64,000 nt of DNA from Escherichia coli. Lineage in GTDB: Bacteria; Pseudomonadota; Gammaproteobacteria; Enterobacterales; Enterobacteriaceae. Where the stretch lies: NCBI RefSeq assembly GCF_003334815.1, contig NZ_QOWO01000014.1; one strand, 5' to 3'. This document shows positions 12,998 to 13,267 of the stretch, one piece after another. A program made the translations under genes and the position numbers. The notes below the pieces were generated by a model. That model saw only the letters and a list, made by a program, of their open reading frames with translations, searched no databases and was not told where the DNA came from. Every line of letters starts with the position of its first letter. The first letter of the stretch is position 1.

Positions 12998-13040
12998 AAA
13001 AAAAAAGAAAGGTAACTTCCCCCGCGAGAGGGAAGTTACC
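12998..13040 (-). terminator. Intrinsic-terminator-like hairpin in the 5' leader of ygcW (candidate attenuator)
   Basis: Minus strand reads GGTAACTTCCC-TCTCGCGG-GGGAAGTTACC followed by TTTCTTTTTTTTT, ending 24 nt before the ygcW ATG. Confidence 0.45.
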
Positions 13041-13219
13041 TTTCTCATTATCTCTGGTAACTGGAGATAATTTTTAGCATAAGGGCATAACTGCTAATGT
13101 GATCGTAATCACAGTGTGATATTCGTATTGTCAAATAATTTTAAAAAGCAGAAGCGTGATTACTCTCACACAACACCTCTGCTTTCCATGTTATTTATTA
13201 TTTCAATTACTAGAGACCT

Positions 13220-13267
13220 GAGAAAAGTAATCCACCTGAAAGGGCGGCTTACTTTTCTCTTTTTTTT
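13220..13267 (+). terminator. Intrinsic-terminator-like hairpin in the 5' leader of yqcE (candidate attenuator)
   Basis: GAGAAAAGTAA-(18 nt loop)-TTACTTTTCTC followed by T8, ending 24 nt before the yqcE ATG at 13292. Confidence 0.4.

Follow-up and report, generated by a model that had tools for sequence, protein, structure and literature searches.

The ygc gene cluster of Escherichia coli raises a question: why does a terminator-like hairpin stand directly before each of two divergent genes, ygcW and yqcE, with a U-tract on the strand of the gene that it precedes? The analysis presented here concerns a 64,000-nt stretch of E. coli DNA (the window; NCBI RefSeq assembly GCF_003334815.1, contig NZ_QOWO01000014.1), and all positions are counted from its first letter. 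An initial annotation of the window had taken the two hairpins for leader attenuators and had proposed that YgcP, a GlpP-like protein encoded in the same cluster, governs read-through into the genes beyond them. On the transcript ends tabulated in two published surveys, both hairpins terminate transcription in vivo, in the leaders of ygcW and yqcE. Furthermore, each of them is part of a larger element in which a second helix competes with the terminator. It is likely that the two leaders are YgcP-controlled, ligand-gated terminator/antiterminator switches.

Terminators in the leaders of ygcW and yqcE

Both hairpins lie within the 318-bp ygcW-yqcE intergenic region. They and their U-tracts are as follows.

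13046 to 13005, minus strand (the ygcW strand): terminator hairpin 1, a 19-bp stem with a 4-nt loop, from folding and Term-seq.
12998 to 13006, minus strand: U9 tract of terminator 1, from sequence reading, 24 nt (12997-12974) from the ygcW ATG.
13220 to 13259, plus strand (the yqcE strand): terminator hairpin 2, an 11-bp lower stem with an imperfect 5-bp top, from folding and Term-seq.
13260 to 13267, plus strand: U8 tract of terminator 2, from sequence reading, 24 nt (13268-13291) from the yqcE ATG.

On the ygcW strand hairpin 1 reads GAGAAAGGUAACUUCCCUC-UCGC-GGGGGAAGUUACCUUUCUU and its tail is UUU-C-U9. It folds at -31.0 kcal/mol (z = -6.8), and none of 200 shuffled sequences is as stable. 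Hairpin 2, the lower stem arms of which are GAGAAAAGUAA/UUACUUUUCUC, folds at -20.5 kcal/mol (z = -5.1). Both are G+C-containing stem-loops followed immediately by a U-tract on the transcribed strand, which is the description of an intrinsic terminator. Folding and sequence therefore agree with the initial annotation on the two strong hairpins, on the strand of each U-tract and on the 24 nt that separate it from the start codon on both sides. The tails that it had read as T-C-T9 and T8 are likewise recovered, the first within UUU-C-U9 and the second as U8. However, it had given both stems as 11 bp. This holds for the lower stem of hairpin 2, to which the 5-bp top must be added, but the stem of hairpin 1 has 19 bp, of which those 11 are the G+C-rich upper part.

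These structures are not products of chance. The pattern GAGAAARGUAA...UUACYUUUCU, which is common to both hairpins, has three matches in the window compared with 0.00 expected (two of the three are the two strands of hairpin 2). A simple terminator scan of positions 12500-13800 returns nine sites compared with 1.6 expected. Finally, hairpin 1 is the strongest terminator-like site within 5000-16700. Rfam 15 has no match at E <= 1 within 12974-13291.

Short transcripts from this region have been catalogued before. Table S5 of Romero et al. (2014; PMC4681348) includes ecr2774 (2898315-2898388, 73 nt, ygcW strand) and ecr2775 (2898527-2898590, 63 nt, yqcE strand), the second confirmed by northern blot, and lists both as candidate small RNAs (sRNAs) that form simple stem-loops. 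Term-seq of cells grown in lysogeny broth (LB) to an optical density of 0.4 (Adams et al., 2021; PMC7815308, Supplementary file 3) places one minus-strand 3' end at 2900311, 38 nt upstream of ygcW, with 40,640 reads, and one plus-strand 3' end at 2900556, 36 nt upstream of yqcE, with 1,557 reads. The Rho scores of these ends (0.50 and 0.61, respectively) are not significant and both lie outside the significant Rho termination regions, whereas their intrinsic-terminator scores are 15.8 and 11.4 where the cut-off is 3. Both are entered in that file as unannotated "orphan" ends.

How do these coordinates relate to the hairpins? U00096.3 coordinates equal window positions plus 2,887,300, a relation derived from the start-codon distances of Adams et al. 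(2021) that reproduces the 319-nt spacing of the two ATG codons. The Term-seq ends are then at window positions 13011 and 13256. The older NC_000913.2 numbering is taken to be 1,978 lower in this region. With that offset ecr2774 runs from about 13066 to 12993 and ecr2775 from about 13205 to 13268, so that the 5' ends of both lie just before a hairpin and their 3' ends at its U-tract. Transcription start sites downstream of the hairpins had been named as the observation that would speak against attenuation; in the published tables the 5' ends are upstream of both hairpins and the 3' ends are at them. Therefore, as far as those tables go, ecr2774 and ecr2775 are the terminated leaders, the same physical RNAs. 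The earlier view that this is a leader attenuator and not the end of an upstream gene is borne out by these short, Rho-independent transcripts and by a covarying competing helix that the initial annotation had not included.

The competing helix and its conservation

Each hairpin is the 3' half of an element of about 80 nt. A segment at its 5' end, (A/G)UUACY, pairs with part of the terminator 5' arm (RGUAAY), which makes the two structures mutually exclusive. The parts of the two leaders are as follows, with scores from R1, a covariance model built from 28 sequences.

12990 to 13070, minus strand: complete ygcW leader element; R1 75.6 bits, E 9e-13, antisense 30 bits; coincides with ecr2774.
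13197 to 13274, plus strand: complete yqcE leader element; R1 78.7 bits, E 2e-13; coincides with ecr2775.
13056 to 13062, minus strand: AGUUACC, proposed antiterminator 5' strand of the ygcW leader, which pairs with GGUAACU (13040-13034), from folding and covariation.
13034 to 13040, minus strand: GGUAACU, which is both antiterminator 3' strand and terminator 5' arm.
13041 to 13055, minus strand: purine-rich loop AGAGAUAAUGAGAAA of the ygcW leader, with two GAGA repeats 8 nt apart; proposed protein-binding site.
13206 to 13211, plus strand: AUUACU, antiterminator 5' strand of the yqcE leader, which pairs with AGUAAU (13226-13231).

The corresponding loop of the yqcE leader, AGAGACCUGAGAAA, is about 15 nt long and likewise has two GAGA repeats. 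AGAG and GAGAAA within the loop show little or no variation across phyla. On their own the antiterminator helices are weak, at -6.7 (ygcW) and -1.4 (yqcE) kcal/mol compared with -31 and -20.5 kcal/mol for the terminators. Termination must therefore be the default, and read-through needs something that holds the alternative helix.

One candidate for this role was a translating ribosome. The ygcW leader has an AUG at 13048-13046 but the yqcE leader does not, the column concerned is occupied by U, A or C, and many homologues lack the AUG, so attenuation by a leader peptide was rejected. This AUG opens a frame of 23 codons (12977-13048, minus strand) that runs through terminator 1 and ends just before the ygcW ATG, and it is probably meaningless. 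A separate feature of the same leader is that its first bases, CUCC (13063-13066, minus strand), are complementary to the Shine-Dalgarno sequence GGAG (12980-12983). The two are paired in the minimum-energy fold of the full leader, which is relevant only if transcription starts at or before 13066.

Both helices can be followed in an alignment of 75 sense copies of the element, 67 of them distinct. The terminator helix is 90.5% paired, with seven pairs changed on both sides, compared with 52-65% when its partners are slid by one to three columns. The antiterminator helix is 95.1% paired, compared with 14-53% for the slid versions. One pair of columns separates the two helices. Antiterminator columns 10 and 40 form G-C in 41 sequences, A-U in 25 and G-U in one, and are unpaired in none, whereas in 43 of the 67 column 40 and its nominal terminator partner do not form a pair. 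This argues that selection maintains pairing between the 5' segment and the 5' arm. The switch between A-U and G-C is seen among enteric copies and again among low-GC copies. Furthermore, an otherwise invariant A-U is G-C in Fodinisporobacter, and the otherwise invariant basal stem GAGAAAAG/CUUUUCUC is GAGGAUAG/CUGUCCUC in Sporomusa.

What if the hairpins are mainly RNA stability or processing elements, or insulators between divergent promoters, and not conditional terminators? The Term-seq ends, which are inside the stems, could be processing sites. There may also be a precedent, in that 1996 work by Glatz and colleagues reportedly found that B. subtilis GlpP also stabilises glpD mRNA. However, a run of 5-10 U follows the stem directly in all 67 distinct copies, which is a hallmark of intrinsic termination, and the tabulated intrinsic-terminator scores (11-16) are well above the cut-off. 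In addition, a pure stability element would give the competing helix no role. We consider this explanation very improbable.

The conserved sequence might instead act as DNA, either as a REP-like or mobile repeat or as an operator (AGTTACT-N15-AGTAACT) for a DNA-binding regulator. The motif is indeed an inverted repeat near the start site. Nevertheless, there are just two copies in 64 kb, both in one intergenic region, they occupy the same position in organisms from Clostridia to E. coli, a single genome contains two versions of the repeat sequence, and the cluster has no gene for a DNA-binding regulator. The variation itself is of the G-U wobble type, which is valid on the gene strand only. 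The terminator has 101 G-U cells on that strand among the 67 distinct sequences, and the Lelliottia ygcW copy (GGUGAC/GUUGCC) pairs on that strand only. A role at the DNA level has only the slightest likelihood. As for repetitive extragenic palindromes (REP) and bacterial interspersed mosaic elements (BIME), they were ruled out by copy number (there are two in the window, and E. coli genomes have a 501-nt stretch across the intergenic region at a median of one place each) and by the lack of an Rfam match at the intergenic region.

How widely is the element found? YgcP homologues of 54-91% identity occur in many Enterobacterales and in Vibrio, Photobacterium, Clostridia, Bacilli and Negativicutes; a scan of viral contigs for GlpP relatives found none. 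The DNA around eight homologues in that range of identity was examined, from Lelliottia, one other enteric, Leminorella, Clostridium sediminicola, Vibrio hannami, Thalassobacillus, Fodinisporobacter and Sporomusa. All eight clusters encode a YgcW-like short-chain dehydrogenase/reductase (SDR), a YgcE-like FGGY kinase and a YgcU-like oxidase linked to flavin adenine dinucleotide (FAD), usually together with electron transfer flavoprotein (ETF) genes and a transporter. In each of the eight the element immediately precedes the SDR gene and has the same orientation, and a second copy is usually upstream of another gene of the cluster. In Clostridium a promoter (TTGACA-17-TATACT) lies six nt before the first A of AGUUACU, a position that fits transcription starting at the motif.

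The converse approach started from the motif. Metagenome contigs were scanned for an exact pattern consisting of the 5' motif and two stem bases only, which returned 101 stretches and 63 unique instances. A T-run, which was no part of the pattern, follows 62 of these 63. The remaining instance, on an E. coli-like contig (L042, 675-755; ...GUUACCUUUCUUUCCUUACGG), has lost its T-run by deletion. It represents a naturally occurring ygcW leader without a U-tract, for which constitutive read-through is predicted. Wherever the flanks suffice, tblastn finds ygcW, ygcE, ygcU and ygcP homologues beside the motif, except in one pair of low-GC contigs (L016 and L032); neither has a homologue of any of the four genes, L032 having been examined over some 6 kb to either side of the motif. 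Model R1 gives exactly two matches in the window, the two leader elements listed above, and scores sense copies at 58-86 bits and antisense copies at 20-40 bits.

Some copies stand apart from this general picture. Low-GC relatives carry extra ones (L021, 1418-1492; L027, 8458-8532; L016, 5563-5637; L032, 6225-6299; L114, 18122-18196), which precede genes for Opu-type betaine/choline ATP-binding cassette (ABC) transporters or for a betaine/choline/carnitine transporter (BCCT); the L032 copy precedes a gene for an MttB-family methyltransferase with a PanB-like gene. The pathway substrate in these organisms may be related to a quaternary amine. The E. coli cluster has major facilitator superfamily (MFS) transporters in place of Opu and BCCT. 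In Leminorella richardii (L005, 16881-16964 and 17176-17259) the divergent hairpins have one and the same sequence from GAGAAAAG through to the U-tract. The E. coli pair differs in this respect, and the identity in Leminorella suggests gene conversion between inverted copies.

These distributions bear on another explanation, namely that the hairpins end two independent genes for trans-acting sRNAs, ecr2774 and ecr2775, and that regulation of the downstream genes is incidental. Both RNAs do accumulate, one of them to the 40,640 reads given above, and their catalogue entries are as candidate sRNAs. However, across phyla the element always stands immediately before, and in the orientation of, a gene that belongs to the same cluster and encodes an SDR, FGGY kinase, FAD oxidase or transporter. 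Moreover, its conserved parts are exactly the competing helices, and any role in trans would be secondary. A pair of independent sRNA genes is thus quite unlikely to be what the locus holds.

YgcP and the proposed switch

If the alternative helix must be held, what holds it? The genes of the cluster, which match the annotation of the MG1655 record, offer one candidate.

6896 to 7471, plus strand: ygcP, encoding a GlpP-family (PF04309) protein and proposed antiterminator, from Pfam and PDB 3KTS matches; ygcN and ygcO are on the same strand.
12188 to 12973, minus strand: ygcW, with its ATG at 12973; ygcQ, ygcR, ygcS and ygcU are on the same strand.
From 13292 (ATG), plus strand: yqcE; ygcE is on the same strand.

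YgcP residues 12-184 match positions 1-173 of the 173 in the Pfam model G3P_antiterm (PF04309; E 1.6e-62), a full-length match that upholds the family assignment made in the initial annotation. YgcP is also homologous to the GlpP structure PDB 3KTS (E 1e-27), and the MG1655 record annotates it, by homology, as an antiterminator. It is the sole regulator-like gene product of the cluster. Three observations link it with the leaders: the element and a PF04309 gene co-occur in all eight taxa, the motif scan returns to the same clusters, and the layout of the leaders is that of Bacilli leaders for which dependence on GlpP is known or presumed (see below). The basis for co-occurrence is the set of contigs that encode YgcP homologues and the one metagenome motif scan. 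On balance, we favour the idea that the ygc leader is an uncatalogued RNA motif spanning phyla, and that its cognate proteins are a distinct subfamily of GlpP-like antiterminators, that of YgcP.

The window is K-12-like. Its 12900-13400 stretch is 100% identical to MG1655 and is found in 5,068 of 5,426 complete E. coli genomes. Within yqcE there is an in-frame TAA at 13901-13903, at codon 204, which is GAA in the MG1655 record (E204*) and which splits the gene of the window into open reading frames of 203 and 208 codons. None of the 5,426 complete genomes has this allele, the best match to a 201-nt query being 99.5% and a centred 51-nt query giving none. Between the convergent ygcP and ygcQ, at 7498-7571, is a REP-like palindromic element with a sub-threshold Rfam match to naRNA4 (34 bits, compared with a gathering score of 59.5). 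A CRISPR repeat array at about 16714-17107, just downstream of ygcE in the MG1655 record, is unrelated to the leaders.

Could the RNA do without a protein? A riboswitch or other protein-independent attenuator might sense a metabolite or another signal, with YgcP having some different role. Riboswitches, too, are recognised by an alternative structure in the 5' leader that is conserved and covaries, and the binding of YgcP to the leaders is something that we infer. However, the sensor would consist of about 35 nt (a weak helix and a loop of purine repeats), which leaves little room for a ligand pocket, and Rfam has no matching family. Co-occurrence with a PF04309 gene in eight of eight taxa also argues against this explanation, as does the same layout in leaders for which dependence on GlpP is established genetically. 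A protein-independent switch is unlikely.

The promoters of the two leaders are best approached through their symmetry. The last 105 nt or so before each start codon can be aligned with one another, so the two leaders are homologous. Whole halves of the intergenic region align too, and the alignment takes in a CRP-like site and an extended -10 element of the form ATGnTA. In E. coli, then, the intergenic region is a mirrored duplication, and the exact 24-nt spacing on both sides follows from it. Elsewhere the spacing is not fixed, the yqcE-side distance being about 48 nt in Lelliottia. The following sites are relevant.

13098 to 13113, no strand: CRP site TGTGATCGTAATCACA, from sequence reading; centre 41.5 bp from the likely ygcW start at about 13064.
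13155 to 13170, no strand: candidate second CRP-like site CGTGATTACTCTCACA, from sequence and as mirror partner of the first; centre 41.5 bp from the likely yqcE start at about 13204.
13189 to 13197, plus strand: candidate extended -10 element of yqcE, TGt-TATTTA, from sequence, mirror conservation and the ecr2775 5' end.
13071 to 13079, minus strand: candidate extended -10 element of ygcW, TGc-TAAAAA, from sequence, mirror conservation and the ecr2774 5' end.

The site at 13098-13113 has been predicted by PhyloScan and is bound by CRP in vitro with a Kd of 1.7 nM (Footprint-seq preprint). The 5' ends of the leaders fit the 41.5-bp CRP spacing, and from this arrangement the divergent promoters are probably class II CRP-dependent promoters. 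Other promoters proposed by a simple -35/-10 scan overlap the opposite hairpins and were set aside, preference being given to the extended -10 elements, which both halves conserve.

The proposed mechanism is as follows. Mirror-image promoters would fire divergently from the middle of the intergenic region, and each transcript would begin at, or a few nt before, (A/G)UUACY, to meet an intrinsic terminator about 22 nt later. When cyclic AMP (cAMP) is high, the CRP-dependent promoters would make the leaders constitutively, which in this proposal is why the short RNAs are abundant in LB. By default the terminator would form, a leader RNA of about 65-75 nt would be released and the operons ygcW-ygcU-ygcS-ygcR-ygcQ and yqcE-ygcE would be off. 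YgcP loaded with a metabolite would clamp the antiterminator on the nascent RNA by way of the GAGA repeats and the helix. With the antiterminator held in this way the terminator would be blocked and transcription would read through into both operons. The ligand would be a metabolite of the pathway, the most plausible candidate being the phosphorylated compound that the FGGY kinase YgcE makes, in parallel with the glycerol-3-phosphate made by GlpK. It is probably not glycerol-3-phosphate itself. A different phosphorylated metabolite is more likely because the gene context differs from glpFKD. We infer the binding of YgcP, the nature of the ligand and the exact start sites.

Several observations weigh against a YgcP-dependent switch. 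The literature searched includes no study of ygcP and no experiment that links YgcP to the leaders. The start sites are known from RNA-seq coverage alone, by way of an assumed coordinate offset, and a start at least 4 nt further downstream would truncate the antiterminator 5' strand. The tabulated Term-seq ends are within the descending arms of the hairpins and outside the U-tracts; we assume that they reflect 3' exonuclease trimming through the A-U-rich lower stems. None of 500 shuffles reaches the covariation score observed for the terminator helix, but many alignment rows are from closely related enterics, so that shuffle statistics overstate independence. The cross-phylum compensatory changes are stronger evidence than shuffle counts. 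Finally, E. coli YgcP is 31% identical to canonical GlpP, and R1 scores canonical glp leaders at 12-16 bits, below generic terminators (24-34 bits). Since R1 misses the glp leaders, the ygc element must be a separate sequence class that has the same architecture without alignable homology.

What was known already is that the short RNAs exist (Romero et al., 2014; Adams et al., 2021) and that YgcP is annotated by homology. Neither report, in the parts that list these RNAs, describes the attenuator structure, its conservation or a link to ygcP. The literature searched makes no mention of ecr2774, ecr2775 or PF04309, and the link between leaders, competing helix, cross-phylum motif and YgcP subfamily appears to be unreported. 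To our knowledge, no GlpP-family metabolite-gated antitermination switch has been characterised in Proteobacteria. If the YgcP-dependent switch is real, E. coli would have one, and it would control an orphan pathway that includes an SDR, an FGGY kinase, an FAD oxidase and ETF proteins. A testable regulatory mechanism would thereby become available for ten functionally uncharacterised y-genes of E. coli (ygcNOP, ygcQRSUW and yqcE-ygcE), and two published orphan sRNAs are reinterpreted as terminated leaders. Fusions of the leaders to a reporter would be a direct screen for the inducer and hence for the substrate of the pathway. The literature searched has no definition of the RNA target of the GlpP family at the nucleotide level, and the element described here (a competing helix and two GAGA repeats) is a compact one for this family of RNA-binding proteins. 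A terminator paired with its antiterminator protein could also be a portable switch for synthetic biology, a use already demonstrated for B. subtilis GlpP and the glpD leader (PMC9604022).

Comparison with GlpP and other antitermination systems

The closest parallel to the ygc leaders is the glp system of Bacilli. B. subtilis GlpP, together with glycerol-3-phosphate, activates glpD, glpFK and glpTQ by overcoming terminators in their 5' leaders (PMC9604022). The glpD 5' untranslated region (UTR) alone confers glycerol control on foreign promoters, and this is lost when glpP is deleted (PMC9604022). That UTR reads AGUUAAUAAGAAC-GGUC-CUGAGAUGAGGAGA-GACC..., followed by the rest of the terminator (PMC9604022). 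In other words, a segment complementary to the start of the terminator 5' arm encloses two GAGA repeats 8 nt apart.

Leaders of this layout also occur at canonical glpP-glpF-glpK-glpD loci of Priestia megaterium, Lysinibacillus and one low-GC organism (L118). Those of glpF and glpD there read UGGU-UGGAGAAUCGGAGAG-ACCA, GGUUU-GAGUAACUGAG-AGACC, GUGGUU-AGGAAAAGG-AACCCAC and GUGUAUU-UGGAGAAAAAGGAGAA-AAUACAU. The two systems are thus alike in having a PF04309 regulator, an intrinsic terminator in the 5' leader as the target, and a 5' strand followed by a loop with two GAGA-like repeats 8-9 nt apart and a 3' strand that starts the terminator. Both types of leader also begin with AGUUA: the Bacilli glp leaders begin AGUUAAUA, or in one case AGUUCAUA, and the ygc leaders AGUUACUA. 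The logic of the ygc cluster is parallel to that of the glp regulon as well, with a transporter, an FGGY kinase and a flavin-linked dehydrogenase together with the electron acceptors of the latter.

However, the targets differ. Those of the ygc system are an SDR, an FAD-linked oxidase, ETF proteins and MFS, BCCT or Opu transporters, and not glpFKD. The E. coli glp genes are themselves controlled by the repressor GlpR. The proteins divide in the same manner. YgcP is 59% identical to the Thalassobacillus protein of a ygc-type cluster, whereas both are 29-31% identical to P. megaterium GlpP, which by sequence makes YgcP a member of a separate subfamily common to Firmicutes and Gammaproteobacteria. 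In the canonical subfamily, glpP of Listeria monocytogenes (L116, 8001-8549) adjoins mutL and pflB and not glpF, glpK or glpD, so linkage of the regulator to its targets is not universal there.

A second parallel, well established in bacterial genetics, is with the antiterminators BglG, SacY and LicT and their ribonucleic antiterminator (RAT) elements in E. coli bgl and B. subtilis sac and lic. In these systems, as in the one proposed for ygc, a protein holds a weak hairpin that overlaps the 5' arm of the terminator. However, the proteins are of an unrelated family, with CAT-PRD domains and control by phosphorylation through the phosphotransferase system (PTS), and the RNA sequence is unrelated too.

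Lastly, HutP and TRAP read short triplet repeats in leader RNA, much as YgcP is proposed to read the GAGA repeats. HutP is described as binding two XAG-rich regions in its own leader, and from the sequence of the ygc loops their GAGA...GAGA repeats are likely to be the corresponding contact surface. The protein folds and oligomeric states are different, as is the outcome. HutP destabilises its terminator directly and TRAP promotes termination, whereas YgcP would hold an alternative helix that keeps the terminator from forming.

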